From an uncultured Spirochaetota bacterium (lineage in GTDB: Bacteria > Spirochaetota > Spirochaetia > SZUA-6 > Fen-1364), in NCBI GenBank assembly GCA_963745235.1, contig CAVUXE010000052.1:128001-192000 (forward strand): a DNA stretch of 64,000 bases, in the 5' to 3' direction. The position numbers and the translations under genes are program-made. Below, in pieces: positions 30,120 through 62,881 of this stretch. A model generated the notes under the pieces. It did no database searches, was not told the DNA's origin, and was given only the letters and a program-made list of their open reading frames with translations. The stretch's first letter is position 1, and each line of letters opens with the position of its first letter.

Positions 30120-30198
30120 CCCTGCCGAGTGTACGCGCAAAACTCCGCGATTGACAACCCGGGGGAGGATGTGCTAATTCGAGCAAAAAGGGGGAGCC

Positions 30199-31503
30199 GT
30201 GGTGGTCGAATCACTATCGCGCATCCAGTTCGCCAGCGTCGCCATCTTCCACTTCCTTTTCGTCCCTCTCACCCTCGGTCTCAGCACCCTCGTTGCAATC
30301 ATGGAAACGATGTACGCGAGGACGGGTGATGAGACATACCTGAAGATGACCCGGTACTGGAGCAGGCTGTTCCTGGTCAACTTCGCGGTCGGGGTGGTGA
30401 CGGGGATCACGCTGGAGTTCCAGTTCGGAATGAATTGGGCGGAGTACTCGAAGTTCGTGGGGGACATCTTCGGCGCGCCCCTGGCCATCGAGGCCACTGT
30501 CGCGTTCTTCCTGGAGTCGACCTTCATCGGAGTCTGGATGTTCAGCTGGAAGCGGGTTTCCCGCGGCGCGCACGCCGCCATCATGTGGCTCGTCGCCTTT
30601 GCCAGCACGCTGTCCGCGCTGTGGATCCTCCTGGCCAACGGGTGGATGCAGAAGCCTCGCGGCTACGTCATTTCCGGCGGACGCGCGCAGCTCTCCGACT
30701 TCGGGGCACTGATCTGGAACCCGTACGCGTGGATCAAGTTCTTCCACGTCATCATGGCCGCCTGGACGCTCGCCGCCTTTTTTGTCATGGGGATTTCCGC
30801 CATTCACATGCTGCGGGGCAGGAACAGCGAGATGGTGCGGAAGTCTTTCCGACTGGCGGCGCCCTTCGGGCTCATCGCCTCCGTGCTCATCATCGTCGCC
30901 GGAGACCTTTCGGGCGTCCAGGTGGCGAAGTTCCAGCCAACAAAGCTCGCGGCCATGGAAGCGCAATGGAAAACGCAGTCCAACGTTCCCTTTTACCTGA
31001 TGGCGCTCCCGGACGTGCGAGCGGACCGCAACAGCATCGAAGCCCTTCCCATTCCCGGCCTTTTGAGCTTCCTCGCCTACCATGATTCAACCGCGACGAT
31101 AAAGGGATTGGAGGACTTTCCGGCGCCGGAGCGTCCGCCGGTGCTGGTGACCTTCATCGCCTTTCGGACCATGGTGGCCCTGGGTTTCCTCTTCGCGCTG
31201 TGCGCCCTTCTTTCCGTCATCTTTGCATGGACAAAGACTTTTGAAACGCAACGATGGTTCCTCTGGGTCATGGCTGTCGCGCTGGTCCTGCCGTATCTGG
31301 CGAGCGAGCTGGGGTGGATCCTCGCGGAGATCGGCAGGCAGCCCTGGATCGTCTATGGGCTCCTGAAAACGGCGGACGCGTATTCCCGCTCCATCACCCC
31401 GGCGGACGTGCTGGGCTCCCTCATAGCCTTCCTGGTCATCTACGGGACCCTTGCGGCCGTGGATGCTTTCCTTCTCACCAGATACGCGCGGAAGGTGGAA
31501 TAA
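30199..31503 (+). CDS. cydA: cytochrome bd ubiquinol oxidase subunit I
   Basis: LSRIQFA..FHFLFVPLT, GITLEFQFGMNW, QPTKLAAME, EIGRQPW. Confidence 0.98.
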   Translation: MVVESLSRIQFASVAIFHFLFVPLTLGLSTLVAIMETMYARTGDETYLKMTRYWSRLFLVNFAVGVVTGITLEFQFGMNWAEYSKFVGDIFGAPLAIEATVAFFLESTFIGVWMFSWKRVSRGAHAAIMWLVAFASTLSALWILLANGWMQKPRGYVISGGRAQLSDFGALIWNPYAWIKFFHVIMAAWTLAAFFVMGISAIHMLRGRNSEMVRKSFRLAAPFGLIASVLIIVAGDLSGVQVAKFQPTKLAAMEAQWKTQSNVPFYLMALPDVRADRNSIEALPIPGLLSFLAYHDSTATIKGLEDFPAPERPPVLVTFIAFRTMVALGFLFALCALLSVIFAWTKTFETQRWFLWVMAVALVLPYLASELGWILAEIGRQPWIVYGLLKTADAYSRSITPADVLGSLIAFLVIYGTLAAVDAFLLTRYARKVE

Positions 31504-43880: not shown

Positions 43881-44006
43881 CCTCCGCCTCCACCACCACC
43901 TCAAGGTACATTCAGCGGAGCCGGTGGACAAGGGCGTGTCCGCAATTGATCTCAGAAGAACGATTTGGAAGTCGAGAAAAAAAGATCGAAAAAACAGGAA
44001 TGGATC

Positions 44007-44038
44007 TTGATAATCTCTAATTATAGTGATATAACTAT
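44007..44038 (+). promoter_or_regulatory. promoter with overlapping palindromic operator (putative ArsR site)
   Basis: TTGATA-N17-TATAAC with TG extension; imperfect palindrome ATAGTGATATAACTAT at 44023-44038 covers the -10. Confidence 0.6.
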
Positions 44039-44074
44039 GTCGTAAGATCAAACAAAAGCCTGAGGAGGTTGCGG

Positions 44075-44392
44075 ATGGCAAGCCTGGTGGCAGACAGGGC
44101 GAAGGCCGTGCACCTGGCGGATACGCTCAAATCCCTGGCCCACCCCATCCGGCTGCGGATCGTGGGGCTCCTCTGCGTTGAGGACCTTTCGGTGACCGTC
44201 ATGGCTGAGAGGCTGGATGTGCCGCAGGCAATCCTGTCCCAGCAGCTTCGGATCCTCAGGATGAGCGGTCTTGTGGAGTCTTTTCGGGCGCGCGGCCGCG
44301 CAAGCTACCGTCTGGGTGAGCCGCGGCTGCGGCAACTGGTGAAGTGTCTTGAGGGATGTCCCTCGAATCGAATGCAAGGAGGACTGGCATGA
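44075..44392 (+). CDS. ArsR/SmtB-family transcriptional regulator
   Basis: LKSLAHPIRLRIV..SV..AERL..PQ..LSQQLRILR..GLV; three Cys residues. Confidence 0.92.
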   Translation: MASLVADRAKAVHLADTLKSLAHPIRLRIVGLLCVEDLSVTVMAERLDVPQAILSQQLRILRMSGLVESFRARGRASYRLGEPRLRQLVKCLEGCPSNRMQGGLA

Positions 44393-44931
44393 GCGTCAAC
44401 GTCGAAAGGGAGCTCGCGGAGCTCAAGGCAAAGGTCGAATCCACGCCCGGAACGGGGAACAAGCTTACCATGGTTGTCTTCTCCGGGAGCCTTGACCGGC
44501 AGCTCGCGGCAATGATCATCGCCACGGGCGCGGCGGCCATGGGGATGCAGGTTGTGCTTTTCTTCACCTTCTGGGGCACCTCCGCCCTGCGGGACCCGAA
44601 CAGGAAGGTGAACGGAAAGAACATGATGTCGAAGATGTTCGGGTTCATGCTGCCAAAAGGCACCAAGGCCCTGAAGCTTTCCCAGATGAACATGGCGGGG
44701 ATGGGAACGGCGATGATGAAGGGGCTCATGAAGAAGAAGAACGTCGCGAGCCTGGAGCAGCTCTTCGAGGTAGCGTCGGAGCTTGCCGTGAAGGTCTACG
44801 TCTGCGAGATGTCCATGGACCTGATGGGCTTCAAGAAAGAGGAAATGATCCAGTACCCGAACCTCGAGGTCTGCGGAGTGGCGACAATGCTCGCGCACGC
44901 CAAGGAGTCCTCGCTGCAGTTCTTCATCTAG
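44389..44931 (+). CDS. DsrE2-like sulfur transferase (DsrE/DsrF/DrsH family)
   Basis: VFSGSLDR..A..IATGAAAMG..V.LFFTFWG, LSQMNMAGMG, CEMSMDLMG; ATGA overlap with the ArsR stop. Confidence 0.92.
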   Translation: MSVNVERELAELKAKVESTPGTGNKLTMVVFSGSLDRQLAAMIIATGAAAMGMQVVLFFTFWGTSALRDPNRKVNGKNMMSKMFGFMLPKGTKALKLSQMNMAGMGTAMMKGLMKKKNVASLEQLFEVASELAVKVYVCEMSMDLMGFKKEEMIQYPNLEVCGVATMLAHAKESSLQFFI

Positions 44932-44968
44932 GGCCACGCGCGCAGCGGCGCGTGAGAAAGGAAACATC

Positions 44969-45208
44969 ATGGCGGACTATACGATAGCAAAGACACTCGA
45001 CTACAAAGGCCTTGCATGTCCCATGCCCGTGGTCAAGATAAGCCAGCAGATCGGGACGGTTTCGGTGGGGGACGTGATCGAGGTGCACACCACGGATCCC
45101 GGCTCGCTGGCTGACTTTCCCGCCTGGGCAAAGACAATCGGGCACACAATCCTCGAGACGAAGCAGGAGCCCGGCGTCATCAAGATCTTCGTCAAGCGGA
45201 TGAAGTAG
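44969..45208 (+). CDS. tusA: sulfur carrier TusA-family protein
   Basis: LDYKGLACPMPVV, TDPGS..DFPAWA. Confidence 0.92.
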   Translation: MADYTIAKTLDYKGLACPMPVVKISQQIGTVSVGDVIEVHTTDPGSLADFPAWAKTIGHTILETKQEPGVIKIFVKRMK

Positions 45209-45217
45209 GGGGGAACC

Positions 45218-46093
45218 ATGCCATCCGTCTCGGATGCGGTATCCGCCGCGTCTCAGGCAACAGGCCACGCCGCCGCGCAGCAGGCGGCACAGGCGGTGAC
45301 GGCTGCGACGCAGGCGGCCCCTCCGGCCGCCGCGGACGCGGTCACCTCGGCCTCCCACGCGGCGGCAGCCGCGGGAGGACCGCTGGCTGCCGTTTACTAC
45401 TTCATCATGGTCCCCATGGTCTACCTGGCCATCCTGGCGCTGCTGGTGGGAATGGTGTGGAGGATCGTCGTCATCCTGCGCTCCCCGGCGCAGTCGTACC
45501 CGCTGACCCTCTACCCGGCGGCCAGGTCCCGCGTGTTTGCCGCTTTCCGGGACGCTTTCGGGATGAGGCAGGTCCGCGAGCACAAGCCTTTCTTCTGGGT
45601 CTTCCTGGTGATCTTTCATGTCGCGTTCGTGCTTCTCATCCTGGCCCACCTGGACATCATCCCCGCCCTGCGGATGCTCCCGGCAGCCTCGAAGCACATG
45701 ATCGGCGCCGGCAGCGTCGGCGTGGCGCTGACTGTCTCCCTCATGTACTTCATCCTGCGGCGGTTTCGAAGCCCCGTGCGGGAAATATCCACGCCGGGGG
45801 ACTACCTGCTCCTGCTGCTCCTGCTGTTCCTTTTCCTGCTCGGAGACATGATCAGCTGGTCCAACTCCTGGGGCGCGCACGGCTTCGTCATGACCAAGAA
45901 GGATTTCGCGAGCTACTTCGACGGCCTGGCCCGGTTCACGTTCGCGGACCCGCGCGCCGTGCTCCATGGATCGCACTATCACTTCGTCGTGCTCCACGTC
46001 CTCCTGGCCAACGTCTTCTTCATCTCCTGCCGTTCACCAAGATCATGCACACCTTCTTCAGCGATTCCAATCAACCTGCTGCGGAGGAGATAG
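45218..46093 (+). CDS. NarI/DsrM/HmcE-like diheme b membrane cytochrome (compensating indels near the C-terminus)
   Basis: FHVAFVLLILAH, VREISTPGDY, HVLLA.. and alternative-frame LPFTKIMH give four His ligands; Ala-rich N-terminal extension. Confidence 0.85.
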   Translation: MPSVSDAVSAASQATGHAAAQQAAQAVTAATQAAPPAAADAVTSASHAAAAAGGPLAAVYYFIMVPMVYLAILALLVGMVWRIVVILRSPAQSYPLTLYPAARSRVFAAFRDAFGMRQVREHKPFFWVFLVIFHVAFVLLILAHLDIIPALRMLPAASKHMIGAGSVGVALTVSLMYFILRRFRSPVREISTPGDYLLLLLLLFLFLLGDMISWSNSWGAHGFVMTKKDFASYFDGLARFTFADPRAVLHGSHYHFVVLHVLLANVFFISCRSPRSCTPSSAIPINLLRRR

Positions 46094-46096
46094 AGT

Positions 46097-47348
46097 ATGG
46101 ACGCGGCAACAAGCACCAGGCTCAAGGGGCTCTTCGAAACGAAGCTCAACGGCGCAATGCGGCTGTACCTGGACACCTGCGCCCGCTGCGGGGTCTGCGT
46201 GGAGGCCTGTCACGTCTACGCATCCATGCCGCAGCTGCGGTATACCGCCGTGGGGCGTGCCGAGGTTATCCGCAAGATCTTCAAGCGCTACTTCAAGCTG
46301 CAGGGGAAAATTGCCCCCTGGCTCGGAGAGGTCCTCCCCATGGACGAGCAGACCCTGGCCGCCGTCAGCGATGCCGCGTGGTCGTGCACGGGCTGCCGGC
46401 GCTGCATGGCCTTCTGCCCGTTCGGCATCGACACGCAGATGATCATGTCCATCGCCAAGCTGCTGCTTATCGGCGCCGACAAGGAGCCCAAGCTCCTTAC
46501 CATGTTGTCGGACATGTCGATTGCGAAGGCAGAAGGGGCTGAAGAGACCAGGGCCAGCTTCGACCAGGCGGTCCTGAATCTCGCCCCCGAAATAGAGGCG
46601 ATCTGGCCGGCGTCTCCCCAGAGGCCCACCATCAGCGTCGGGGCCATGGGCGCAGACGTGCTGTACGTCGCCCTGGCCGGCAAGCATTCCATTGTCCCCG
46701 CCGCGGCCATCATGAACGCCGCCGGCGAGAAATGGACTTTGAGCCTATTCGAAGCAGTGAACTTCGCCGCGTTCCTGGGCGACCCCAAGAAGATGCAGAT
46801 CATCGCCCGGCGCATTCACGACGAGGCCATCCGGCTGAAGGTGAAGGAAGTGGTCATCGTGGAGTGCGGGACCGCCTTCCGGGTGATGAAGTACATGACC
46901 GGCTACCACCCGTTCAAGGTCTTCGCGTTTGTCGAGCTGATTGCGCGCTACGTGCGGGAAGGGCGCATCACGCTGGACCGCTCACGCCTTGCCGGGCAGG
47001 ATCACCTACCATGATCCCTGCCAGATCGCCAGAAACGGCGGGGTCATTGAAGAGCCTCGCCTGGTGATCCGTCAGCTGACGGACAACTTCGTCGAGCTGA
47101 CTCCCAACAGGGAGAACAACTGGTGCTGCGGAGGGGGCGGCGGGCTGGTCGCCATGGGGGAAAAGGAGTTCCGCATGAGGTCCGGCCGGGTCAAGGCGGA
47201 GCAGATGAAGGCGTCGGGAGCGGATGTGATCTGCACGGCGTGCGAGAACTGTCACACGCAGCTCACCGACCTCAACGAGCACTACGGCCTGGGGATGAAG
47301 GTCGAGTTCCTTTCCCGCCTGGTTGCGAACGCCCTCGGAAAGCCTTGA
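46097..47348 (+). CDS. DsrK/HmcF/TmcB-like Fe-S oxidoreductase with CCG domain (indel near 47000)
   Basis: CARCGVCVEAC, CTGCRRCMAFCPFGID, ECG; then in the next frame YHDPC..WCCGGGGG..CTACENC. Confidence 0.88.
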
Positions 47349-47369
47349 AACGCCTGTGCCCTTCTCTCC

Positions 47370-47858
47370 CTAGCGGGAGGGAAGGGCGCGCACCGCCGCG
47401 GCCAATCGGTCAATCGCGTCTGCCTGGATGGCCGAGATGTCGCGAGCCGGATGAACGAGGCTTCTCACGAGGATCCGGTCCAGCAGGGAAAGCTTCTCCA
47501 GGGACAGATTCCCTCCCATCAGCTCGCGCGCGAACGCGTGGGCGGAGAGCCACGGGGGAAAGGCCTCCTGAAGCTGCGCCATGCCGCGTTCGCCGGTGTA
47601 GAAGCTGCTGATGAACAGCCCTGCCTTTTTCGACAGGAGGCGTTCGCGTTCCTGCTCGCAGAAGCTTACGACCTGTCTCTGGATCTTTCCCCCGTATATG
47701 GAGCCGCCTATGAGAATGACGTCGAACTCTCCGAGTGATGGCCGACCACGCGCTCGCAGATCGTGAACAACCGTGTCGGCTGAGATTTTCCGCGCCAGGG
47801 CCCCCGCGCACGACTGCGTGGCGCCGTAGCGGCTGCGATAGGCGATCAGCACCTTCAC
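47370..47858 (-). CDS. flavodoxin-domain protein (HemG-like)
   Basis: LIAYRSRYGAT..A..FDVILIGGSIYGG. Confidence 0.85.
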   Translation of the reverse strand: MKVLIAYRSRYGATQSCAGALARKISADTVVHDLRARGRPSLGEFDVILIGGSIYGGKIQRQVVSFCEQERERLLSKKAGLFISSFYTGERGMAQLQEAFPPWLSAHAFARELMGGNLSLEKLSLLDRILVRSLVHPARDISAIQADAIDRLAAAVRALPSR

Positions 47859-48160
47859 TTCGGACCCCCCTTCCCGTCCCGAGCCGCCGCCGCGAGACTC
47901 TCTCTCACGTGATACAGGCGATTGCGCAGGTACAGCACGATGTCGATGCTCACCATGAGCGCATTCAGCGCATAGAGATAAATGACCAGGTCATAACGGT
48001 AGATGATCTTGTGAAGGATCCCGGCGACGTATCCGACCACGATGACCAGGAGGAAGGGCAGGCTCTTCCCGGCCACCTGCCGCGTCTTCCACGACTTGTA
48101 GATGGAGAATGGCCAGGCAGCGCCGAAGCACACAAGCATGATGATCTCGAAGATGCTCAT
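47855..48160 (-). CDS. PQ-loop/SemiSWEET-like 3-TM membrane protein
   Basis: FEIIMLVCFGAAWPFSIYKS..GKSLPF..GY..GI.HK..LY.LN. Confidence 0.7.
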   Translation of the reverse strand: MSIFEIIMLVCFGAAWPFSIYKSWKTRQVAGKSLPFLLVIVVGYVAGILHKIIYRYDLVIYLYALNALMVSIDIVLYLRNRLYHVRESLAAAARDGKGGPK

Positions 48161-48187
48161 TCAGGTGCCCCCGATAAGGAATGTATA

Positions 48188-48922
48188 CTACAGGTAGCCA
48201 AGCGACGCCATCGCTTTTTCAAGGGCGATACCCGCCGCGGAAGATGCAAGCGCGTCAGCGCTTCCGATCGCTGCTTCGATGGAGGGGTCATGGGGAACCT
48301 CGACGACGCGGGCAACCCCTGCCCTCCGCGCAAGGTCCCTTACCCGGCCGGCGTCTCCCTGCACCATGTTCGCTATGACCGCGGGCACGGAAACATGAAG
48401 CTCCCTCAGCACCGAGAGAAGCCTCTCCACCACGGAGACGGACACCACCGCCGGGGTTGAAACCACCAGCGCCTCCAGCCTCGGCACGAGCCGCGAAAGG
48501 TCCAAGATCTCCTCTCCCATTCCGGGAGGCATGTCTATGAGGAGCAGCTCCGCGGGGCCCCACATCGTGACCGCCAGAAGCTCCAGGATGGCGTCAGAAA
48601 CCTCGGCGCCCCGCAGAAGAAGGCCGCGTTCTCCGGTGAACGGGGCAACGCTCATCAACGACACGCCGTCCGCCACCGGCAGCGGCAGGATCCCGTGTTT
48701 CTCCTCGGGAAGACGAGGCCTGGTTCCAAGAAAAAGATGGGCCGAAGCTCCCTGCATGTCGAGGTCGAGAATTCCGACCCGTCGTCCGCCCCTGGCGAGG
48801 ACAAGAGCTGAAACGACAGTGCACATCGTCTTGCCCACCCCCCCCTTCGCGGATGAGAAGGCGATGACGCGCTGTATGCCTGCAAGCCTCTTTGCGACGA
48901 CAGCGGTTCGCGGATCGGTCAA
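48188..48922 (-). CDS. Mrp/MinD-family ATPase, probable ATPase-type HypB
   Basis: DPR..V..RL..AKGGVGKT, LDLD.QG, LRG.EVSDA.LELLAVT.WG, DMPPG; no C-terminal CxxC; TTGA overlap with the hypA stop. Confidence 0.8.
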   Translation of the reverse strand: MTDPRTAVVAKRLAGIQRVIAFSSAKGGVGKTMCTVVSALVLARGGRRVGILDLDMQGASAHLFLGTRPRLPEEKHGILPLPVADGVSLMSVAPFTGERGLLLRGAEVSDAILELLAVTMWGPAELLLIDMPPGMGEEILDLSRLVPRLEALVVSTPAVVSVSVVERLLSVLRELHVSVPAVIANMVQGDAGRVRDLARRAGVARVVEVPHDPSIEAAIGSADALASSAAGIALEKAMASLGYL

Positions 48923-49338
48923 ACGCACCCTTCCCTGTTGACTACTTCCAGGCTGGTGATGCTCACGCCCCTGCCCTTTTTCAGCCGGTAGTCGGGACTT
49001 CCACACGCCGGGCAGCGGATGAACGCGTGAGCGGATTCAGGAAGAAAGTGGATTGCCTCGCGCTCCTCATCCGTGAGCCCGCGACTCTCCTCCAGGTCCC
49101 ATTCCCTCTGGCATTTTTCGCACCCAAAGGTCGCTTTCTCCGTCTCCAGGTGGAAAATGCCTCGGGAATACGGCCTCTCCGAAAGGAGGGTCTCCAGCGC
49201 AAAGGAAAAGATCTCCCTGTCGATTGCCTGCAGCTCGCCGATGAGGACAGTCACGCCTCGAAGGCAGGACGGGTCCCTGCTGCCCATGGCGGCCGCCGTC
49301 GCCTCCACCACGGCGTCCGCGAGAGCCCATTCGTGCAC
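48919..49338 (-). CDS. hypA: hydrogenase nickel incorporation protein HypA
   Basis: GTG start giving MHEWALADA; GELQ, CEKC, IHFLPE..HAF..CPACGS. Confidence 0.93.
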   Translation of the reverse strand: MHEWALADAVVEATAAAMGSRDPSCLRGVTVLIGELQAIDREIFSFALETLLSERPYSRGIFHLETEKATFGCEKCQREWDLEESRGLTDEEREAIHFLPESAHAFIRCPACGSPDYRLKKGRGVSITSLEVVNREGCV

Positions 49339-49339
49339 C

Positions 49340-49645
49340 CTAGAGCCTCGAGATGAGGTCCCTGACCCAGGGATCAACGACGGAGTAGATCCGCCGGTTT
49401 CCTTCCACCCGGGAAGAAACGATATGTTCGCGCTTGAGCACCGCCAGGTGCTGCGAGACCACGGGCTGGGATTCTTCTACGCAGTGCCAGAGGTCCGAGA
49501 CGCAGGGTTCGCTGCGCTCGATGGCGCAGAGAAGCTTCAGGCGAATGGGGTGGCCGCAGACCTTCAGCTTGCGGGCGATTGACGGCATTGACCGCCGCAG
49601 GTCCATGCGGATGATGTCCTTGTCCAGAAGCTTGTTTTTTTCCAT
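49340..49645 (-). CDS. ArsR/SmtB-family transcriptional regulator
   Basis: LKVCGHPIRLKLLC..CVSDL..SQPVVSQHLAVLK..R.EG..R.Y. Confidence 0.9.
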   Translation of the reverse strand: MEKNKLLDKDIIRMDLRRSMPSIARKLKVCGHPIRLKLLCAIERSEPCVSDLWHCVEESQPVVSQHLAVLKREHIVSSRVEGNRRIYSVVDPWVRDLISRL

Positions 49646-49698: not shown

Positions 49699-50946
49699 AT
49701 GAATCGGGTGTACCTCGACTGGGCGGCTTCCGCGCCCCCGGAGCAGGCAGCCATCCAGGAGGCCGCGGAGGTGTCCCTGCAGTGTTTTGGAAATCCTTCC
49801 TCCCCTCATGCCGCGGGAAAGGAAGCCGCGGAACGCCTGGAGAACGCGCGCGCACGGCTGGCGCGGCTGATCGACGCCTCGGCCGCGGAGATCGTGTTCA
49901 CCTCGGGGGGGACCGAATCCAACACATCGCTCCTGCTCTCCGTTCTCGACCGCTATCGCCTGGGTGGCGTTGAGCGGCGAAAAGCGCGCGTGATCACAAC
50001 TGCCGTCGAGCACGCATCCATCCACGACCAGGCCCTCGCCCTGGAGGCGTTGGGGATGACCTGCACGGTGGTAAAGCCCCAGCCGAACGGAATCGTTGAC
50101 CCGCAGGCAATTGCGGATGCCCTTGATGCTGAGACCGTGCTGGTTTCCGTGATGCTCGTCAACAATGAGACGGGCGCCATCCAGAGAATCGCGGAAATAT
50201 CCCGCCTCATTCGAGAGTTCTCCGCGCGCCGCGGCAGGAGGATCATCCTGCACACGGACGCGGTCCAGGCCTTGGGCAAGATCCCCGTTTCCGTCGCGGG
50301 CCTCGGAGTGGATGCCGCGTCTTTCAGCGCTCACAAGGTGGGCGGGCCCCGCGGGATAGGTGCGCTCTACCTGAAAGCGGGTGTGGCCCCCGGCTTCCTT
50401 TCCATTGGCGGCGGACAGGAGTCGGGGCGGCGCCCCGGCACGGAGAATGTCCCCGGCGCCTGCGCCTTTGCCAAAGCTGCCGAGCAAAGAGCCGCGAAGC
50501 TGACGGACAACCACGCCTGTGCAGCCGCGCTGGCGGACCGTCTTGTGACGGGCCTGAAGGAGATACGAGCGTCCCGCATCTTTCCGGAAAGCCGAACCGG
50601 CAGGGACTCCGAGGCTTTTTCCCCGTACATCGTCTCCGCGGGGTTCCCCCCCCTCACCGGGGAGATCGTGGTGCGGGTCTCGGACGCCCAGGGGTTCTGC
50701 ATTGCCACCGGGTCGGCATGCTCCACGAAGAAGAAGGACCACACCAGGGTGCTGGAAAGCATGGGGATGGATCACCAGACGGCGCTTTCGGCCATCAGGA
50801 TCTCCATCGGCCCTTCCACCATCGAGACAGAGATCGACGGCTTCCTTGCCATGCTCACGGAGCAGGTTCCGCCGCTCCTCTCCATCTCCCAGGGGCTTGG
50901 CGAAAGCCATAAGGCTCGCGACGAGCGCGCCGGGGCGCGCGGATGA
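49699..50946 (+). CDS. cysteine desulfurase (IscS/NifS/NifZ type)
   Basis: YLDWAAS, GNPSS.H, FTSGGTE, VNNETG, HTDAVQ, SAHK, ATGSACS. Confidence 0.95.
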   Translation: MNRVYLDWAASAPPEQAAIQEAAEVSLQCFGNPSSPHAAGKEAAERLENARARLARLIDASAAEIVFTSGGTESNTSLLLSVLDRYRLGGVERRKARVITTAVEHASIHDQALALEALGMTCTVVKPQPNGIVDPQAIADALDAETVLVSVMLVNNETGAIQRIAEISRLIREFSARRGRRIILHTDAVQALGKIPVSVAGLGVDAASFSAHKVGGPRGIGALYLKAGVAPGFLSIGGGQESGRRPGTENVPGACAFAKAAEQRAAKLTDNHACAAALADRLVTGLKEIRASRIFPESRTGRDSEAFSPYIVSAGFPPLTGEIVVRVSDAQGFCIATGSACSTKKKDHTRVLESMGMDHQTALSAIRISIGPSTIETEIDGFLAMLTEQVPPLLSISQGLGESHKARDERAGARG

Positions 50947-52119
50947 GCGAGCCCCGCCGGCAGACAGACGGCCTGTTCCTGATCAAGTACGGTGAGATAG
51001 CGCTGAAGAGGCGAAACCGCGGGGCATTTGTGAAAAGCCTCAAGGACTCCATTCGCGCCCACCTGCCGGACCTTCCATTCTCCGTGCATGAGACGTTTCA
51101 CCGGGTCTTTGTCGGGTTCCGCCCGGAGGACAAGGATCGGATTGCCGAAGCTCTTGGCCGCACCTTTGGCGTCGTCTCTTTCTGCGAAGCGCTGCGCGCT
51201 CCCCGGGAAATGCCCGCAATAGAGGAAGCAGCCATCGGTCTGGCCGGCCGCCTCATTCGAGACGGGAACCAGGTTCAAGGCCGAGGTGAGGAGGGCGGAC
51301 AAGTCCTTCCCGCTCACATCGTACGAGATAGCGTGCAGGATCGGTGACACGCTGCGCGCTCGCTTCCCCGGGTTGACCGTGGACGTGCATACCCCTGATT
51401 GGGTATTGTCCATAGAAATCCGCGAGCATGCGTACCTGTATGGGCCAGAGCTCCCCGGACCATACGGCCTGCCGGTGGGCAGCTCGGGGAAGGGAATGCT
51501 CCTTCTGTCAGGCGGAATCGATTCGCCGGTGGCCGGATGGATGATGGCGAAGCGAGGGATGTCACTGGAGGCCGTCTACTTCCATTCCCCCCCGTTCACC
51601 TCGGAAAAGGCCCGGGAGAAGGTTGAGATGCTTGCGCGGATACTTTCCCGCTATGCCCCGGGCATCGTCCTGCACGTGGTGAACTTCACGCCCGTGCTTG
51701 CGCGCATCAAGGAAAAGGCGAAGGACGAGGAGGTCACTCTGCTGCTGCGGGCGTGCATGATGCGCTTCGCGACGCTGCTTGCGGAGCGCCGGGGCGCAGA
51801 GTGTCTGATAACGGGTGAGAGCCTGGGCCAGGTCGCAAGCCAGACGGTCGAAAGCATCCATTTCACGGGAATGCTGTCTGACCTGCCGGTGTTCCGGCCC
51901 CTGATCGGAATGAACAAGGAAGAGATCATTGCCGTTGCGAGGAAGATAGAAACGTTCGACACGTCCAACCTTCCCTACCAGGACTGCTGCGTTCTTTTCT
52001 CCCCTGAGCACCCGCTGATTCACCCGGAGGTCCGCCGGATGAAACGCGCGTACGATTGCCTCGTGGCTGAGGCGCTCATCGTGGACGCTCTGGAGAAGGC
52101 GGAGCTCGTTTCGGTGTGA
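50943..52119 (+). CDS. thiI: tRNA 4-thiouridine synthase ThiI without rhodanese domain (indel near 51270)
   Basis: IKYGEIALK..NR; THUMP domain; LLSGGIDSPVA; TGESLGQVASQT; RPLIG..KEEI; DCC. Confidence 0.93.
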
Positions 52120-54041: not shown

Positions 54042-55040
54042 TCAGTTGCCCTGGTTTGTCGCCGGCTGGGCGGTTGCGTCCGTCCCTGTGGGCGGCGCGC
54101 CGACAGGTGGCGCCTCCGCGCCGGCCGGCGGCCCGTTGAGAAGAGTGAGGATCAGCGGCATGATTTCCGCGTCACTCACCGCGACGCCCTTCAGCCTGAC
54201 ACTGGTCCCGTCCGGGGCCACTGAGATTGTCTTCAGCCGCTGTGCCGCGTTCGACACATTATTGGACTTCATCCATGTGACAATGCCGATCCGCAGGATG
54301 AGCGAGAGCACCTGGGCCTGCTTCTCCGTGTCTGTATTCATGGTGGCGCTGAGCTCATAGCCGTCCGCGGTTTTCATCGCATCCACCCAGACTTCGCGGA
54401 TGGGAAGGCGCGGACGATCGTCCGACTCCGCGGCCGCTGGCTGATCCCCGGCTGCCTCCCCGATTCCTCCCGGCAGCTGCGGCATGTACAACACGATATC
54501 AGTCCTGGTCATGTCACTGGCGACTTCGGGAGGAATGGGCAGAGGGATTGGCGTCTTGTACCGGGAGAGGAGAGTCTGCATGTCTCCATTTGCCGCGAGG
54601 AGCACCCCCCCGCTGGGGAGACTGAGCTGGAGGTTCGCCTTGTTCCACAGGTAGAAGCTGCCGTCGGACCCTGACACCTGCTTCCATTCCTTCTTCCCGG
54701 AAAGGCTCATGCCGATGAGAACCGTGGGATACGACCCCAGCGCAACCGCCGCGAAACGCAGGGGCGCGCCTTTCTCCATTTTCACGGAGACCAGGAAGCG
54801 CTTCGTCATTCCCGAAAGCGTGGCGACATCGTTGTAGCCGGGGCCGCCCTCCTTCAAAGTCTTGCGAATGAGGTCAGCGGACGGCGGCACGGAGACCGAG
54901 ACGTACATGGTTGCGTCCCCGGGGAGCACGCCCATCCACTCCACCGGAGACCGCTGAGGAGGAGCCGAGGCGCACGAGGAGAGCAGGAGGAGCGCGCCGC
55001 ACCAGCAGAGCCAGCGGGTGAGTCTCCCGAAGGATCTCAC
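54042..55040 (-). CDS. hypothetical lipoprotein
   Basis: GTG start overlapping the ileS stop; lipobox LLLSSC after a hydrophobic stretch. Confidence 0.75.
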   Translation of the reverse strand: MRSFGRLTRWLCWCGALLLLSSCASAPPQRSPVEWMGVLPGDATMYVSVSVPPSADLIRKTLKEGGPGYNDVATLSGMTKRFLVSVKMEKGAPLRFAAVALGSYPTVLIGMSLSGKKEWKQVSGSDGSFYLWNKANLQLSLPSGGVLLAANGDMQTLLSRYKTPIPLPIPPEVASDMTRTDIVLYMPQLPGGIGEAAGDQPAAAESDDRPRLPIREVWVDAMKTADGYELSATMNTDTEKQAQVLSLILRIGIVTWMKSNNVSNAAQRLKTISVAPDGTSVRLKGVAVSDAEIMPLILTLLNGPPAGAEAPPVGAPPTGTDATAQPATNQGN

Positions 55041-58000
55041 GATGAAGCCTTGCGCAGGGAAACCGTGCACTTCTCTTCACCGCAGTCTATCTCCACAGCG
55101 TCCGTCGCCGTGTCCCATTTCCAGGAAACCGCGAGCGTTTCGGAGAGCAGGTGGTCGCGGTGATTCTCCGCCGCGCTGCGCAGCACGTTCGACCCCGAGA
55201 GCGTGAGTGAAATGCGGTCCGTGACGTCCAGGCCTTTGTCCTTTCTGCAGGTTCTGGATCCCCCGCACGAGGTCCCGGACCAGTCCCTCCTCGATCAGCT
55301 CCGGGGTGAGCTCGGGGTCCAGGGCGACCGTCAGGGAGCCGTCGTTTATCACCTTGAGGTTTTCCTTCTCGATGCGCTGGATCTCCACGGCTTCGGGGGT
55401 CAGGGGGAAGCTGCGGCCGTCCAGCTCGAGGGTGATCTCTCGGCCTGCCAGCAGCGCGTGGATCTGGCGGAGCTCGAGAGCCTCGATCTTTTCCGCGGCG
55501 GCCTTCATGTCCTTGCCCAGCTGCTTGCCCAGGGCCCGGAAATTGGCCTTTGCCTGGTACTCCACCAGCTCGTCCTCGTTCTCGCGGAAGATCACGCTCT
55601 TCACGTTGAGCTCGTCCTTGATGAGGTCCTCCATTTCCTGCAGGATCCGCCTCTCCTCGGCGTCCCGCGTGACCACATGGAGCGCCTTGAGGGGCTGGCG
55701 GGTCTTCAGGGCGTAGTCGGTGCGCAGGCTCCTCCCCATGCCGACGGTCTTCATCGTCACCTTCATCTTGCGCTCGAGCTCGGGGTCCCGGCGGGACGGG
55801 TCGTAGACGGGGAAGTCGCAGAGGTGGATGGACTCCGGCTGGGACGCGGTCTTCAGGTTGGCGTAGATCTCCTCCGTGATGAAAGGGATGAACGGGCTGC
55901 CACAAGGATGAGCTTCATGAGGGCGGTGTGCAGGCTCTGGTAGGCCTCCTGCTTGTCGGCGTCGTTCCCCGAGCGCCAGAAGCGCCGGCGCGAGCGCCGG
56001 ATGTACCAGTTGTTGAGCAGGTCGATGAAGCCGACGAAGACATCCACCGCCTTCTGCAGGTCGTAGTGCTCCAGCTGCTCGGTGATTTCACCGACCATTC
56101 TCTCCGCCTCGGAGAGGATCCAGCGGTCCAGCGGATTGGCGAGGTCGCCGCGGGGCAGCCGTCGACGGTGACGCTGTCGATGTTCGCGTAGGTGACGAAG
56201 AAGCTGTACGAGTTCCACAGGGGGATGATGACGTTCTTCACCACCTCCTTCACCCCGGCGTCGGAGAAGCGCAGGTCCTCCGCCTTCAGCACCGCGGAGT
56301 CCAGCAGGAACAGCCGCATTGCGTCCGCGCCGTAGGTGCCGATGACCTCCATGGGGTCCGTGTAGTTGCGCGCGGACTTGGACATCTTCTTGCCTTCCGA
56401 GTCGAGGATCAGGCCGCTCACGATGACGTTGCGGAACGTCGGCTTGTTGAACAGGGCCGCGCCCAGCACCACGAGGGTGTAGAACCAGCCCCGGGTCTGG
56501 TCGATGGACTCGGAGATGAAGTCCGCGGGGAAGTGCGCCTCGAAGCGCTCCCGGTTCTCGAAGGGATAATGGTTCTGGCCGTAGGGCATGGCGCCGGACT
56601 CGAACCAGCAGTCGAGCACTTCGGGGATGCGCCGCATGGTGCCGCCGCACGAGCAGGGATAGGTGAGCTCGTCGATGAAGTGCTTGTGCAGGTCTTCGAC
56701 CTTCCTGCCCGTCTTCTGCTCCAAGCTCCGCCCGGGAGCCGATGCATTCCATTCGCCTTGCAGGAGTCGCAGCGCCAGACGGGGATGGGGTTGCCCCAGT
56801 AGCGGTTGCGCGAGATGGCCCAGTCCCGGGCGTTCTCCAGCCACTTGCCGAACCGCCCTGCCTTGAGGTGGGCGGGCATCCAGGAGATGGCGTCGTTCGC
56901 CGCGAGCATGTCCGTCTTGATCTTCTCCACGCTCACGAACCACGCCGAGATGGCGCGGTAGATCAGCGGGCTCTTGCAGCGCCAGCAGTGGGGATAGCTG
57001 TGCGTGTACGGAGTCGTGCCGGACCAGCGGTTGCCCTGCTCCTTCAGCTTCCGGATGATGGACTTGTCCGCGTCCTTCACGAACTGCCCTGCCCAGTCGG
57101 GGACCTCGGCGGTGAACTTCGCCTCCTCGTCCACCGGGGCAGACGACGGGAATGCCGGAGCCCTTCAGGAGGTTGTAGTCGTCCTCGCCGAAGCCCGGCG
57201 CGATGTGGACGATGCCGGTGCCGTCTTCGGTGGTGACGAAATCTCCGATCCAGGTGCGGAAGGCGCCCTTCTCCTTCAGTGTCGGCGAAGAACGGGAACA
57301 GCGGCACGTATGACCTGCCCGGCCAGCTCCTTGCCGGTGTAGCGGGCGACGACCTGGTACTGCGGCCGGGTCCTTGTAGTAGGCGGGAAGCCTCGTCCTC
57401 CGCCAGGATGTAGTGCTCCGCGCCGTCCTTGACCTTGACGTAAGTGATGTCCGCGCCCAGGGCGAGGCCGAGGTTGGACGGCAGGGTCCACGGCGTGGTG
57501 GTCCACGCGAGGAAGAACGTGTGCCGGCTCTCCCTCCACGGCGAACTTCACCGTGATGGCGGGGTCCGAGACGTCGATGTAGCCGCCGAGGTTCAGCTCG
57601 AAGTTGGAAAGCGACGTGGAGCAGCGGGGGCAGTACGGGAAGGATGTAGAAGCCCTCGTAGATCAGGCCCTTCTTCCACAGCTCGCTCAGGACCCACCAG
57701 ATGGACTCCATGTAGTCGGGATCCATGGTCTTGTAGTCGTGGTCGAAATCCACCCATCGGCCCAGGCGCGTGATGACCTTGCGCCATTCCCGCGTGTAGC
57801 GCAGGACGATGGACCGGCAGGCCTCGTTGAACTTCGCCACCCCGTACTCTTCGATCTGCTTCTTGCCCGAGATGCCCAGCTCCTTCTCCATCTCGTACTC
57901 GACGGGAAGGCCGTGGCAGTCCCAGCCGAACCGCCGCTCCACCTTGCGCCCCTTCATGGTCTGGTAGCGGGGAATGACGTCCTTGACCGTGCTGGGAATG

Positions 58001-58177
58001 AAGTGCCCGTAGTGAGGCAGGCCGGTGGCGAACGGGGGGCCGTCGTAGAAGACGAACTCCTCCGCTGCCCTCGCGCTGGGAGATGGATTTCTCGAAAATC
58101 TTTTTCTTCTGCCAGAAGGCGAGCACCTTCTCTTCCATCTGCGGGAAGCTCACCTTCGGGTCGACGGGCTTGTACAA
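55037..58177 (-). CDS. ileS: isoleucine-tRNA ligase, type 2 (many apparent indels)
   Basis: Fragments across frames: [73 protein letters not shown]. Confidence 0.95.
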
Positions 58178-58297
58178 AGAGACTGGTCCTCCCTGCGACT
58201 ATATACGGAAAAAAGCCGGCCCGAGTCAAGATAACAGGGCTGACGACGGCCCGTCGGCGGGGCCCCTCCCTTGCTCACGGGCGATCGCTCTGCTTAA

Positions 58298-60077
58298 ATG
58301 CACAGGCAGCATATGAAAAAATACAGAGAAGCATGGCGCGCCCGGGTCGCCGAGGCCATTGCGGCCGCGGCGGCTGATGCGGGCATCAGCGGCCTGGACA
58401 CTTCCACGCTCGTGACCGAGACACCGCCGAATCCGGACATGGGCGACATCGCATTCCCCATGTTCCCCTTCGCCCGGGCCTTCTGCAAGGGCCCCCCCGC
58501 CATTGCCCAGGAAGTCGTCAAGCGACTCTCCCCATCGGCGGGGAATGCAGACCGTGTGGAGGCGGCGGGCCCATACGTGAACGTGCGGCTCGTCCCGGGG
58601 CCGGTCATCGACGAGTCCTTCACGACATTTCCAGTCAGGGCGCCGGCGTACGGAAAAGAGCGCGCCCTTGCCGGCCATCGCATAATGCTGGAGTTCTCCT
58701 GCCCCAACACGAACAAGCCGCTGCACCTGGGGCACCTGAGGAACGACGCAATCGGTGAGAGCCTTTCCCGGATCCTTCTCGCGGCAGGGGCCACCCTGCG
58801 GAAGGTCAACCTGATCAACGACCGCGGGGTGCACATCTGCAAGTCCATGCTCGCCTACCAGATGTTCGGCGGGTCGGCCACCCCCGAACAGCGGGGATGA
58901 AAGGCGACCATTTCGTCGGGGACTACTACGTGAAGTATGCCCAGTACGCGAAGGACCACCCGGAGGCGGAAGAGCAGGTCCGGGAGATGCTGCGCAAGTG
59001 GGAGGAGGGGGATCCCGAGGTCGTGGCCCTGTGGCGGACGATGAACTGCGTGGGTGATCGGCCGGCATCGAAGAGAGCTACCGGCGGACCGGCGTGACTT
59101 TCGACAAGGTCTATTTCGAGAGCGACATCTACAAGCTGGGACGGCAGGAGGTCCTCGCCGGCATCGAAAAGGGGACTGTTCCAGAAGGACCCCGACGGCT
59201 CGGTGTGGGTGGACCTCACGGACAAGGGCATGGAACGGGAGGTGCTGCTGCGAAGCGACGGAACCTCGCTGTACATCACCCAGGACATCGGGACTGCCAT
59301 CCAGCGATCCAAGGACTGGCCGTTCGACAGGATGATCTACGTGGTCGGCTCCGAGCAGCGCCATCACTTCCAGGTGCTCTTCAGGGTCCTCAAGCGGCTG
59401 GGATACACGTGGGCATCCAGCCTCCATCACCTGGCGTACGGCATGGTGAACCTGCCCGAGGGCAAGATGAAATCCCGCGAGGGCACGGTGGTGGATGCGG
59501 ATGACCTCCTGGACGAGCTGGAAAGGCTGGCCGCGGAGGAGATCCGGACACAAGGAGCGGGAAGAGGAAGTGGCGGACCTCTCAGGCACGGCGCGGGACG
59601 ATTGCGCTGGGCGCGCTGAACTACTGGCTGCTCCAGGTGACCGCGGTGAAGGACATGACCTTCGACCCGAAGGAATCGATTTCCTTCAACGGAAACACCG
59701 GCCCGTACCTGCAGTACACCGGCGCGCGCATCTCCAGCATGCTTCGCAAGTTCGAAGAGCGAAAGGAGAGCTTCCGCGCCGGCACGTACTCCGCGGCAGC
59801 TCTTTCCCTTCCGGAGGAATGGGAGATCGCCAAGTCGCCTCGGCGCTTTTCCCGGAAATCGTCATCGCCGCCGCGCGCGAGCTCAACCCTTCCGTGCTGA
59901 CGGCGTACCTCTTCGAGACTGTGCAAGAGCTTCAGCCGCTACTACCAGGACCACCCGGTCCTGCGAAACGAGGATCCGAACCTCGTGGTGTCCCGCATCG
60001 CCCTGGTCAGGGGGGTGCTGCAGGTCCTGCGAAACGGCCTTACTCTCCTGGGGATTCCGTTTCTCTCCGTGATGTAG
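58298..60077 (+). CDS. argS: arginine-tRNA ligase (many apparent indels)
   Basis: [64 protein letters not shown]. Confidence 0.95.
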
Positions 60078-60086
60078 GCCGGCCAA

Positions 60087-60769
60087 CTAAGTGAACGCGT
60101 TCGTCAGGCTGAAGTCCCCTTCGGACGTCACGAATCCGAGCCTGATATAGGGAGGAAGGCCCTCGGAGGCCAGCCGAAAAGAGAAAGCCCGTGAAGCGGG
60201 GTCCCAGCTCTCTGGTTTCACGGCATCCATGCCCGGCAACAGGAGAGCCCCGGCGGCAGCCGTCGTGATGAAGCGGCCGCTCACCAGGAGCTGCGCGCCC
60301 TCGTGGATGACGCGCAGGTCCTCAACGAGCCTCTCGCAAAACATCAGGACCCACACCTCTCCGCCCGGCGTCGGCCACTCCCCCACCCCGGCATGCGTCC
60401 AGGATGGACCGAGTGCCATTGTTCGATGGGAAGGGCTGCCTTCCCAGCCCCGCTCGATCGAGGCAAGTCGGGGGCCCGCGCCGATGATCTCCCCGACCCG
60501 CGCGTCGGTGCCGCCGTGGCTCCGGAACCGGTCAAGGCCGGTGGACCCGTCCGCGCCCCGATGGCTGATGACGCCTGCCTGCGCGAGCGCCCGCGCCCAG
60601 TCCAGAGCCGTGCGGGAAAGAAGGCGTCTTCCTGGACTGGCGGAGCCCCCGCGGCATGCCGCACGGCATTCAGCCAGGCCAGCGCGCTCGTCTGGGCAAA
60701 AGCTCGGGCCGCAAACCCGAAGGACAAGATGCACAGCCAGACGCAAAGGCGTGCGGGCGGCCTTTTCAT
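60087..60769 (-). CDS. exported CAP/SCP-domain protein (indel near 60625)
   Basis: Signal peptide and WLNAVR in one frame; ISHRGADGS..DR..GEII..W..SPSHR..W..AGVG in the next. Confidence 0.75.
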
Positions 60770-60831
60770 ATACCAGTGGATTCTATATAGTGAGTCGGGT
60801 TTTTCCAAGGAAAATCTCCCGGAGAGACTCA

Positions 60832-62881
60832 ATGGCAGACCTCGACGGAATACGCAACATCGGGATCATCGCGCACATCGACGCCGGGCAAAACCACCAC
60901 CACGGAGCGGATCCTCTTCTACACGGGGAAGACCCACCGCATGGGCGAAGTGGACGACGGGGAAGCCACCATGGACTGGATGGACCAGGAGCAGGAGCGG
61001 GGGATCACCATCACCGCGGCCGCCACCACCTGCTACTGGCGGGACCACCAGATCAACATCATCGACACGCCGGGACACGTGGACTTCACCGCGGAGGTGG
61101 AGCGCTCCCTGCGCGTGCTGGACGGCGCCGTGGCCATCTTCTGCGCCGTGGGGGGAGTGGAGCCGCAGTCCGAAACGGTCTGGCACCAGGCGGACCGCTA
61201 CCGCGTTCCGCGCGTCGCGTACATCAACAAGCTGGACAGGATCGGGGCGAACTTTCATGGCGTGCTGGAGGAGATGAGAGGGAAGCTGGGCACCGCTCCC
61301 CTCCCGCTGCAGCTCCCCATGGGGGCCGAAAGCGATTTCGAGGGCGCCGTGGATCTCGTCGAGATGAGGGAGGTCAGGTGGGACCAGGATGACCAGGGCA
61401 ACACGCTCCTGTTTTCTCCCATCGACTCCTCTCGCGCGGAGGAAGCCCGGAAGGGGAGGGAGAACCTCCTGGATCACCTCTCCCACATTTCCGACAACGT
61501 GACCGAGCTCTACCTTGGAGGCTCCGAGATACCGGCGAATGTCCTGAGGGCCGCGATCCGCCAGGGCGTCCTGGCTAACGCGTTCACGCCGGTGCTGTGC
61601 GGCGCCTCCCTTCGCAACATGGGCGTGCAGCCGGTCCTGGACGCCGTTGTGGACTTCCTGCCCTCCCCTCTGGACCTGCCGCCGGCCCACGGCCATCACG
61701 CGAAGAAAAACGAAGACGTGGAGGTTCCCTGCAAGCCGGAGGCCTTCGCCCTGGGCCTCGTGTTCAAGCTGCAGGTCAACCGCGAAGCAGGAAACCTGTG
61801 CTACGTTCGCCTGTATTCGGGGAAGCTCAAGGAGGGGCAGACAGTCTACAACATCAGCAAGAAGAAGCGGGAGCGGATCAACCGGCTCATGCGGATGCAC
61901 GCCAACCATTCCCAGCAGCTGGACCAGATAGAGGCCGGGGATATTGCCGCCATTATCGGGCTGAAGACGTCACAAACCGGCGACACCCTCGGGGTCGAAG
62001 CGTTCCCCATCCTGCTGGAGAAGATGCACTTCCCCGAGCCGGTGATCTCGGTGGCCATCGAGCCCAAGACCCTTTCGGAAAGGAAGAAGCTCGGGGAAGC
62101 CCTCGAAACGCTTGCCCTGGAAGACCCCACATTCTCGGCCAAGGAGAATGAAGAGACCGGCGAGCTGATCATTTCCGGGATGGGAGAGCTTCACCTGGAT
62201 GTCCTTGTGACACGGATATTCCGGGAGTTCAAGGTGGAGGCTCGCGTGGGCAAGCCGCAGGTCTCGTATCGGGAGACAATCAGCGCCGAGGTGACCCACG
62301 CGGAGAAGTACCACCGCGTGATTGCCGGCAAAGAGCACAGCGCGGCCATCACCATCAAGGTAAAACCCGCCCCTCGCGAGGAGGGCAACTCCTTCACCAA
62401 CGCCCTTCCCGACGGCGGGCTGCCTGATGAGCTGGTGAGCGCGGTGGAACGGGGCGTCACCGCCGCCTTCGGCTCCGGGGTGGTCTATGGGTACCCCGCG
62501 CTGGACATCGCCGTCACGCTCCTCGAAGCGGAATACCACCAGACCACGTCGACTCCCATCGCCTTCGAGGCGGCGGGAGCCATGGCCTTCGACGCGGCCT
62601 GCCGGAAGGCACGCCCCATCCTGCTGGAGCCGATCATGGCCGTCGACGTTCTCACGCCGTCGGAGTTCCTGGGAGAGGTGATCGGGAACCTGAACGCGCG
62701 GCAGGGCCTGATCGTGAACGTGGAGAGCAAGCCCGGCGCGGATCACGTGAAAGCGCAGGCGCCGCTTGTGTCAATGTTCGGCTACTCCACCGTGCTGCGC
62801 AGCGCCACCCAGGGCCGCGCCACCTTCACCATGGAGTTCTCTCACTTCGCGGAGAAGGTGGGAGGGTTCGGCGCCTCGTAG
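60832..62881 (+). CDS. fusA: elongation factor G (indel near 60890)
   Basis: [14 protein letters not shown](TT), [40 protein letters not shown]. Confidence 0.95.

Follow-up and report, generated by a model that had tools for sequence, protein, structure and literature searches.

Genetic organization of the locus

The window analyzed here, a stretch of 64,000 nucleotides from the metagenome-assembled genome (MAG) of an uncultured Spirochaetota bacterium, contains a compact operon (positions 44075-47348) of five closely packed + strand genes, distinguished on the basis of the list of open reading frames (ORFs) and profile matches, with intergenic gaps of -4 to 38 nt. The operon encodes (i) a predicted repressor of the ArsR/SmtB family, (ii) two sulfur carriers (a DsrE2-like protein and TusA), (iii) a NarI/DsrM-like cytochrome b and (iv) a DsrK-like iron-sulfur protein, the predicted catalytic subunit (Table 1). 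The last four genes (DsrE2-TusA-DsrM-DsrK) are referred to below as the cassette. In the original prediction, made from the nucleotide sequence alone, the locus was described as five co-oriented, closely spaced genes encoding a DsrE2-like carrier, a TusA protein with a CPxP motif, a four-His NarI-type cytochrome b and a protein with two [4Fe-4S] motifs and a CCG domain. This gene content was borne out by the ORFs, profile matches and conserved residues; what had been missed were three 1-bp indels in the last two genes.

Table 1. Features of the operon and of its upstream region (window coordinates; scores in bits).
Feature	Position	Strand	Evidence
Candidate ArsR operator	44023..44038	+	ATAGT-N6-ACTAT palindrome within a conserved, AT-rich stretch of the promoter; lies 37-52 nt ahead of the arsR ATG
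ArsR/SmtB-family regulator (predicted repressor)	44075..44392	+	PF01022, 37.8; NF033788, 63.2 (cut-off 55)
DsrE2-like sulfur carrier	44389..44931	+	PF13686, 166.3 (cut-off 25)
TusA sulfur carrier	44969..45208	+	active site CPMP; PF01206, 73.1 (cut-off 28.6)
NarI/DsrM-like diheme cytochrome b	45218..46093	+	about 5 transmembrane helices (hydropathy); PF02665, 28 (cut-off 22.9)
DsrK-like predicted catalytic subunit	46097..47348	+	two CX2CX2CX3C [4Fe-4S] motifs, VECGT cysteine, one full CCG motif; PF02754, 61.2

The DsrE2-like ORF opens at 44356, and its likely start codon (44389) overlaps the arsR stop codon. The protein scores 83.5 bits with the DsrE2 family NF047629 (cut-off 210) and passes with PF13686, while TusA reaches 44.4 bits with the equivalog of Escherichia coli TusA, below the cut-off of 78. 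The cytochrome b is NarI-like and not DsrM proper, because PF02665 passes while the DsrM equivalog NF038037 gives 19.5 bits against a cut-off of 300. For the intact DsrK-like ortholog from the same genus, the best-scoring named family is DsrK (hidden Markov model NF045796, 236.4 bits), yet this score lies under the cut-off of 400; TmcB and HmcF give 222.5 bits (cut-off 735) and 205.5 bits (cut-off 750), respectively. Just the C-terminal CCG domain was found in the DsrK-like protein; in the first CCG-like region, one Cys is retained. In this genus, the DsrM-like protein is extended at its N-terminus by about 55 residues (window positions 45218-45390), which are rich in Ala, Gln and Ser and precede the first membrane helix; the protein is 291 aa long in the window, compared with a median of 244 aa over 80 loci.

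In the window, the DsrK-like gene is divided into two ORFs (46097-47014 and 46941-47348), whose products cover positions 43-320 and 324-435 of the DsrK model (155.7 and 83.0 bits, respectively), and the DsrM-like gene contains 12 garbled codons across the LPFTKI(V/M)H motif, the site of the fourth heme histidine. Compared with six same-genus loci, a base is missing from the window near 46024, and two sites, 46061 and near 46991, have one base too many each. Three indels inside 1 kb first suggested a pseudogene, i.e., a decaying operon whose last two genes are truly broken in this genome. Contigs from DNA runs of three studies (X1, X2 and X3, of which X2 may be the source sample) and from a metatranscriptome run (X9) were compared with positions 44000-47400. 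The DNA contigs have a G inserted behind 46026 and one letter dropped at 46061 and at 46994; the RNA run, which of the three sites spans 46994 alone, has the letter dropped there too. Thus, although contig depths are low (2.2-7.3), the frame is restored in every contig that spans indel sites. Furthermore, frame switches with respect to both of two same-genus genomes were seen in seven gene regions elsewhere in the window (besides the DsrK-like gene: 28459-30163, 50892-52119, 55040-58198, 58066-60074, 60090-60853 and 60757-62872); thiI is split at about 51290, and the ferrochelatase gene of the MAG is split as well. Because the contigs restore the frame and frame switches are common across the window, we conclude that the three indels arose in the assembly or, at most, are peculiar to it. 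The pseudogene reading was rejected on these grounds, and decay of the operon is very improbable. Scattered single-base assembly errors across the MAG may also lower its completeness estimate (85.7%). For protein-level work, intact orthologs from same-genus genomes (locus L020) were used in place of the window proteins.

Distribution of the cassette and its relation to Dsr systems

A protein search gave 3546 proteins at E<=1e-20 among 8000 candidates, and a scan of one genome per species confirmed at least 584 relatives. The DsrK-like gene is present in 17 of 20 same-genus genomes (in one of them as a 56-residue fragment) and in 1 of 40 other-genus genomes, and the gene order DsrE2-TusA-DsrM-DsrK is kept in all 14 fetched same-genus loci. 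Cross-phylum counts were made on the best 80 of the at least 584 loci (58-92% identical), which come from about eight phyla. Among these, the DsrK-like gene is found in 80, the DsrM-like gene in 78, TusA in 76 and DsrE2 in 74; in all cases of a missing gene the DsrK-like gene lies within 1.4 kb of a contig end, and the four-gene order is kept in every locus with enough upstream DNA. The predicted linkage of tusA and dsrE to the dsrM/dsrK-like pair therefore extends to other genomes, and a pair truly separated from the carrier genes was not seen. Beside the four genes, no further conserved neighbor was found across the best 80 loci.

According to their labels, the carriers of the cassette belong to Spirochaetota (Rectinema and Treponemataceae among them), Bacillota (Clostridia and Oscillospiraceae), Eisenbacteria, several orders of Desulfobacterota and Nitrospirota, and include one Hyphomicrobiales MAG (Pseudomonadota) and one Cytophagia MAG (Bacteroidota). 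They are mostly fermenters and sulfate reducers of anoxic habitats. The module is thus not confined to spirochaetes.

As stated in the original prediction, no dsrAB, dsrC, dsrJOP or sHdr genes adjoin the cassette. The MAG consists of 104 contigs with 5.9% contamination, and at its level of completeness the absence of genes is not proven. No match to DsrC (PF04358) or DsrA (TIGR02064) was obtained in this 85.7%-complete MAG, in line with the predicted lack of a full Dsr system elsewhere in the genome, and the DsrK-like gene of the cassette is the sole one found. An sHdr-type CCG set was not found either: the PF02754 matches in the MAG are the cassette gene and one 428-aa ORF on contig C32, which has two CCG domains on one ORF and is not an sHdr set (LbpA was not searched). 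Five other carriers of the cassette were checked. Rectinema subterraneum, a Firmicutes MAG and an Eisenbacteria MAG contain it without dsrA or dsrC and have a single DsrK-like gene each, while a Desulfobacterales and a Nitrospirota genome contain it together with both dsrA and dsrC. The Desulfobacterales genome encodes a canonical DsrK (731 bits) besides the cassette protein; in the Nitrospirota genome, further matches to the DsrK model, beside its dsrA and dsrC, are fragments below the cut-off. Since three of the five carriers are without dsrA and dsrC and two have both, the module occurs with and without a Dsr system and is independent of it. The possibility that the pair is the true DsrMK of a hidden Dsr system was rejected in view of these carriers and of the MAG, in which no dsrA, dsrC or second DsrK-like gene was detected.

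Conserved residues, phylogeny and modelled TusA docking of the DsrK-like protein

Fourteen cysteines of the DsrK-like protein are kept in 79-80 of 80 sequences: C28, C31, C34, C38, C97, C100, C103, C107, C308, C343, C344, C382 and C385, and the Cys of the VECGT motif (Cys257), which is present in 80/80. The four histidines of the DsrM-like protein (H135, H145, H261 and H279 in ortholog numbering, with spacings of 10 and 18) are found in 35/35 sequences. Of the two carriers, TusA keeps Cys17 within the motif CP(M/I)P in 72/72 sequences, and the DsrE2-like protein keeps C139 (numbering of the G006 ortholog) in 69/69, with a second Cys in 35/69. For DsrE2A, two strictly conserved Cys residues have been described (PMC4175335).

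The membrane heme/iron-sulfur enzyme of the cassette is related to the enzyme that completes sulfite respiration. Among its closest described counterparts is DsrMKJOP, with DsrMK as its minimal core, which is reported to be a menadiol:DsrC-trisulfide oxidoreductase (Barbosa et al. 2024, PMC10861901); in the same report, a single CCG motif and a strictly conserved Cys in (G/T)ECGH are given as marks of DsrK, HmcF and TmcB. The cassette and DsrMK have in common a NarI-type diheme cytochrome b and a cytoplasmic subunit with two cubane clusters, one CCG/non-cubane cluster and an ECG Cys. They differ in that the cassette protein scores under the DsrK cut-off, needs no DsrC or DsrAB and is always linked with TusA and DsrE2; its motif is VECGT and not GECGH, and the last CCG ligand in the cassette clade is a Cys where many DsrK have an Asp. 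TmcBC and HmcEF of sulfate reducers show the same two-subunit architecture, with a single CCG motif as in the cassette, but the cassette protein is far under the TmcB and HmcF cut-offs and genes for a cytochrome c or periplasmic subunits are absent from its vicinity. The likeness to HdrED of methanogens lies in the combination of a membrane cytochrome b and a disulfide reductase of the CCG type that is supplied by a membrane carrier; however, HdrD binds two non-cubane clusters (PMC10861901), while the cassette protein has one CCG domain, and its substrate would not be CoM-S-S-CoB.

With respect to the carriers, TusA and a PF13686-type DsrE2 with the same active-site Cys also stand side by side in the Rhd-TusA-DsrE2 and sHdr-linked relays (PMC11094781, PMC4175335). 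As described for sulfur oxidizers, these relays feed rDsr or sHdr-LbpA, whereas the cassette is without a clustered rhodanese gene and no sHdr set was found in the MAG. The published idea that comes nearest concerns Pelobacter carbinolicus, whose sulfur reductase has been proposed to be a flavoenzyme in which rhodanese, TusA and DsrE are fused (PMC3543383). In this enzyme, as in the system proposed here, a TusA-/DsrE-like persulfide relay is coupled to a reductase of the disulfide type, and sulfide is the suggested product; it differs in being a soluble, flavin/NADH-dependent single polypeptide without a cytochrome b or CCG cluster, and is itself a proposal. A description of the DsrE2-TusA-DsrM-DsrK cassette was not found in the literature within reach, i.e., outside subscription-only TusA and DsrC reviews and supplements. 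We hypothesize, on the basis of these comparisons, that the cassette encodes a widespread enzyme of the DsrMK/HdrED type, in which TusA/DsrE2 would replace DsrC.

The best solved-structure match of the DsrK-like profile was PDB 9ojn_A, a 1042-residue "iron-sulfur-binding reductase" (E 2.2e-14, CCG region only). No chain of a DsrK was matched by this profile at E<=0.01 in the PDB copy searched.

A phylogenetic tree was built from 24 of the 80 cassette proteins, with 5 paralogs and 2 TfrB-like outgroup proteins from one Desulfobacterales genome, i.e., with one reference per family. The cassette proteins form a tight cluster that is located outside TmcB+HmcF (100/99) and is not nested in DsrK. 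The base of the tree is a polytomy with long branches, composed of canonical DsrK, a second TusA-linked clade, the protein of locus L100, TmcB+HmcF and the main cassette clade (87/86). A sister relation to any one family is not claimed, given the long branches and one reference per family. Within the tree, the DsrK-like proteins of five Bacillota loci are nested in the Spirochaetota clade (L038-L059) with support of 100/100, which suggests lateral transfer of the cassette between these two phyla.

Besides canonical DsrK, TmcB, HmcF and a cassette of the main type, the Desulfobacterales genome G063 contains a second, divergent DsrE2-TusA-DsrM-DsrK cassette (L123:1471-4243). In the DsrK-like protein of this second cassette (41% identity), the motif reads SECGH, and the score with the DsrK model is 279.9 bits; TusA-linked DsrMK-like modules thus form at least two clades. 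A further arrangement, with the order DsrE2, DsrM-like (28% identity), TusA, DsrK-like, was found in one Deltaproteobacteria-labelled MAG (L100:4418-7239), whose DsrK-like protein falls outside the main cassette clade.

The complex of the DsrK-like protein with TusA was modelled from alignment inputs. A score of 0.66 was obtained in all three runs, compared with 0.10 for the best of three controls; this score was reached by 58/80 solved complexes and 2/110 mismatched pairs, counts that apply only roughly here since own alignments were used as input. At least 97% of contacts are shared between the runs, and the predicted local distance difference test (pLDDT) value of the partner is at least 86. 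On the TusA side, the modelled interface comprises residues 16-18 (the Cys17 loop) and 42-49 and includes the invariant TTDPGS stretch, and on the DsrK-like side it comprises residues 133-162, 193-199, 217-223 and 383, the last of which is flanked by the cluster ligands C382 and C385. Residues 133-162 are similar between the two TusA-linked clades, while those of DsrK, TmcB and HmcF differ. With the controls passed and the TusA Cys loop within the interface, the confidence of the model supports the binding of TusA to the DsrK-like subunit, with the Cys loop placed at the CCG site.

Proposed function of the operon

The closest solved chains to the ArsR protein of the operon are the persulfide sensors BigR (3PQJ, E 1.4e-12) and SqrR (6O8K, E 1.1e-10), although the protein gives 63.4 bits with the BigR model, against a cut-off of 155. 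As in BigR and SqrR, Cys residues are located in helix alpha-2 and near the C-terminus; compared with C42/C108 of BigR, the alpha-2 Cys is offset by +3 and the C-terminal pair is a CxxxC (CLEGC). In related regulators, C91 and C95 are kept in 22/22 and C34 in 19/22 sequences. Cys-bearing regulators are also encoded upstream of the cassette in other genomes: among the best 80 loci, an ArsR-type regulator was found in 24 (tblastn) and a MarR-like regulator with a CC motif in 17, mostly of Desulfobacterota. The 16-bp palindrome in front of arsR is near-invariant in 6/6 same-genus sequences and unique in the window (0 expected from shuffles), which makes it a candidate operator for ArsR. A TTGATA-17-TATAAC pair seen by eye was not called in a promoter scan, and no promoter is claimed.

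We propose, with a probability of roughly 0.55, that the product of the operon is a quinol-linked membrane enzyme, independent of Dsr, that reduces sulfane sulfur bound to TusA/DsrE2; it would release sulfide and be induced when reactive sulfur modifies the repressor. In the proposed mechanism, a TusA persulfide would hold sulfur in the cytoplasm, and the DsrE2-like protein would act as a further carrier or as a donor. TusA would dock on the DsrK-like subunit and hand the sulfur to the conserved VECGT cysteine (Cys257), and reduction to sulfide would take place at the single non-cubane [4Fe-4S] cluster. In a 2026 preprint (10.64898/2026.08.25.746951), the corresponding cysteine of the (G/T)ECGH motif is modelled as a persulfide relay to the non-cubane cluster. 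Electrons would pass from the membrane quinol through the two hemes b of the DsrM-like subunit and the two cubane clusters. A thiol-based repressor (of the ArsR type here and of the MarR type in Desulfobacterota) would block the operon until reactive sulfur modifies its cysteines. Physiologically, the module may serve to clear cytoplasmic sulfane sulfur, to employ sulfur as an electron sink or acceptor, or to do both. Substrate, direction, quinol donor and regulation are what we infer from the features described above. The earlier suggestion of a membrane-linked persulfide reductase or oxidase, with TusA replacing DsrC, is accordingly supported as a hypothesis, in which we prefer the reductase.

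As to the host, cytochrome bd subunit I is encoded twice in the MAG (568.8 and 529.2 bits), once in the window and once on contig C84, and a ferrochelatase gene is present; a quinol pool and heme are therefore likely. The gene in the window (PF01654, 568.8 bits; 30214-31494) lies 13 kb upstream of the cassette and predicts a quinol oxidase in a spirochaete-like anaerobe.

Several observations speak against the proposed reductase. Both the substrate and the direction are guesses by analogy, and the part assigned to the DsrE2-like protein is tentative. Cys257 is not listed among the contacts of the modelled complex, and its motif has a Thr in place of the His of (G/T)ECGH, which the 2026 preprint regards as a possible proton relay. 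Quinone synthesis was not established in the MAG, where the best MenA-like match gives 82.2 bits (cut-off 102.15) and MqnA has no match at 85.7% completeness. No YeeE/YedE importer was found in the incomplete MAG, and no rhodanese gene is present in the cluster. Contigs of the RNA library (X9) cover positions 44074-45266 and 46734-47124, but such contigs do not prove transcription; positions 45368-46621 are not spanned by any X9 contig, from which nothing is concluded. Finally, sulfur/sulfide couples lie at about -270 mV. The potential of menaquinol is far higher, about -70 mV (PMC10861901), so that the reduction of sulfur by menaquinol may be energetically unfavorable unless the sulfur on the carrier is activated; DsrMK faces the same issue.

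The proposed reductase may be carried one step further. It is possible, and we put it forward only tentatively, that the cassette conserves energy as a terminal reductase of zero-valent sulfur and does so independently of Dsr, with TusA (together with DsrE2) in the part of DsrC. It might then also stand as a sister or an ancestral form of the DsrMK-DsrC pair. If this is true, fermentative spirochaetes, clostridia and other anaerobes of peat, soil and the subsurface would gain an unrecognized sulfide-producing route. Sulfide production and the handling of sulfane sulfur in anoxic soils, peat and aquifers are usually assigned by dsrAB, psr/phs and asr, and a TusA-fed, quinol-linked reductase would be a route missed by such marker surveys. 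The module would also constitute a natural experiment on sulfur-carrier recognition by DsrK-type enzymes, a question just opened by the first DsrMKJOP structures. A cultured carrier is available (R. subterraneum, locus L059) and the proteins are small, which makes the idea testable at once.

The same machinery might act on other sulfur species, namely a mixed disulfide or trisulfide between TusA and DsrE2, which would mimic the trisulfide of DsrC, or a Cys thiosulfonate derived from tetrathionate or thiosulfate, with products including sulfite or thiosulfate. The two carriers, each with one invariant Cys, always stand alongside the enzyme, DsrE3A and TusA of Metallosphaera are reported to carry thiosulfonate (PMC4175335), and it is argued in the 2026 preprint (10.64898/2026.08.25.746951) that oxygenated sulfur can be processed at the DsrK cluster. 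However, the DsrE2-like protein is of the PF13686 type and not a DsrE3A, and no tetrathionate or thiosulfate gene is conserved beside the cassette, and we regard such substrates as rather unlikely.

The direction of the reaction may also be considered. DsrMK-type complexes have been proposed to run both ways (PMC6018796, PMC13293266), and in the oxidative direction carrier-bound sulfane sulfur would be oxidized with transfer of electrons to quinone, as proposed for DsrMK(JOP) in sulfur oxidizers; the cytochrome bd oxidases of the MAG could accept these electrons. Such a direction is unlikely here, as no onward oxidizing enzyme was found, the MAG has no detected dsrA or dsrC, its other CCG protein is not part of an sHdr set, and the carriers of the cassette are, for the most part, organisms of anoxic habitats with a fermentative or sulfate-reducing metabolism.

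A housekeeping role is the last alternative to reduction of carrier-bound sulfane sulfur. In the genus, the cassette is located 2.4 kb from iscS-thiI (49699-52119) and adjoins genes for Mrp/NUBPL and HypA, and its TusA and DsrE2 genes are the only copies seen in the MAG (tblastn; TusA at E<=1e-3). The enzyme might then merely re-reduce oxidized TusA and DsrE2 for a sulfur relay to tRNA thiolation or cofactors. This neighborhood is not kept outside the genus (loci L026 and L027), further TusA-type genes occur in many carriers, in the Desulfobacterales genome even within a second module of this kind, and neither a dedicated diheme membrane anchor nor redox-sensing repressors would be expected for such a task; we therefore consider this role quite improbable.

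The - strand genes that converge on the operon (47370-49645) encode a HemG-like flavodoxin (PF12724), a 101-aa membrane protein without a family, an Mrp/NUBPL ATPase, HypA and a second Cys-rich ArsR. Conservation of the flavodoxin gene is seen in 11/14 loci of the genus and does not extend beyond it, and the flanking genes as a whole (flavodoxin-like, small membrane protein, Mrp, HypA, second ArsR and IscS) are kept only within most of the genus.

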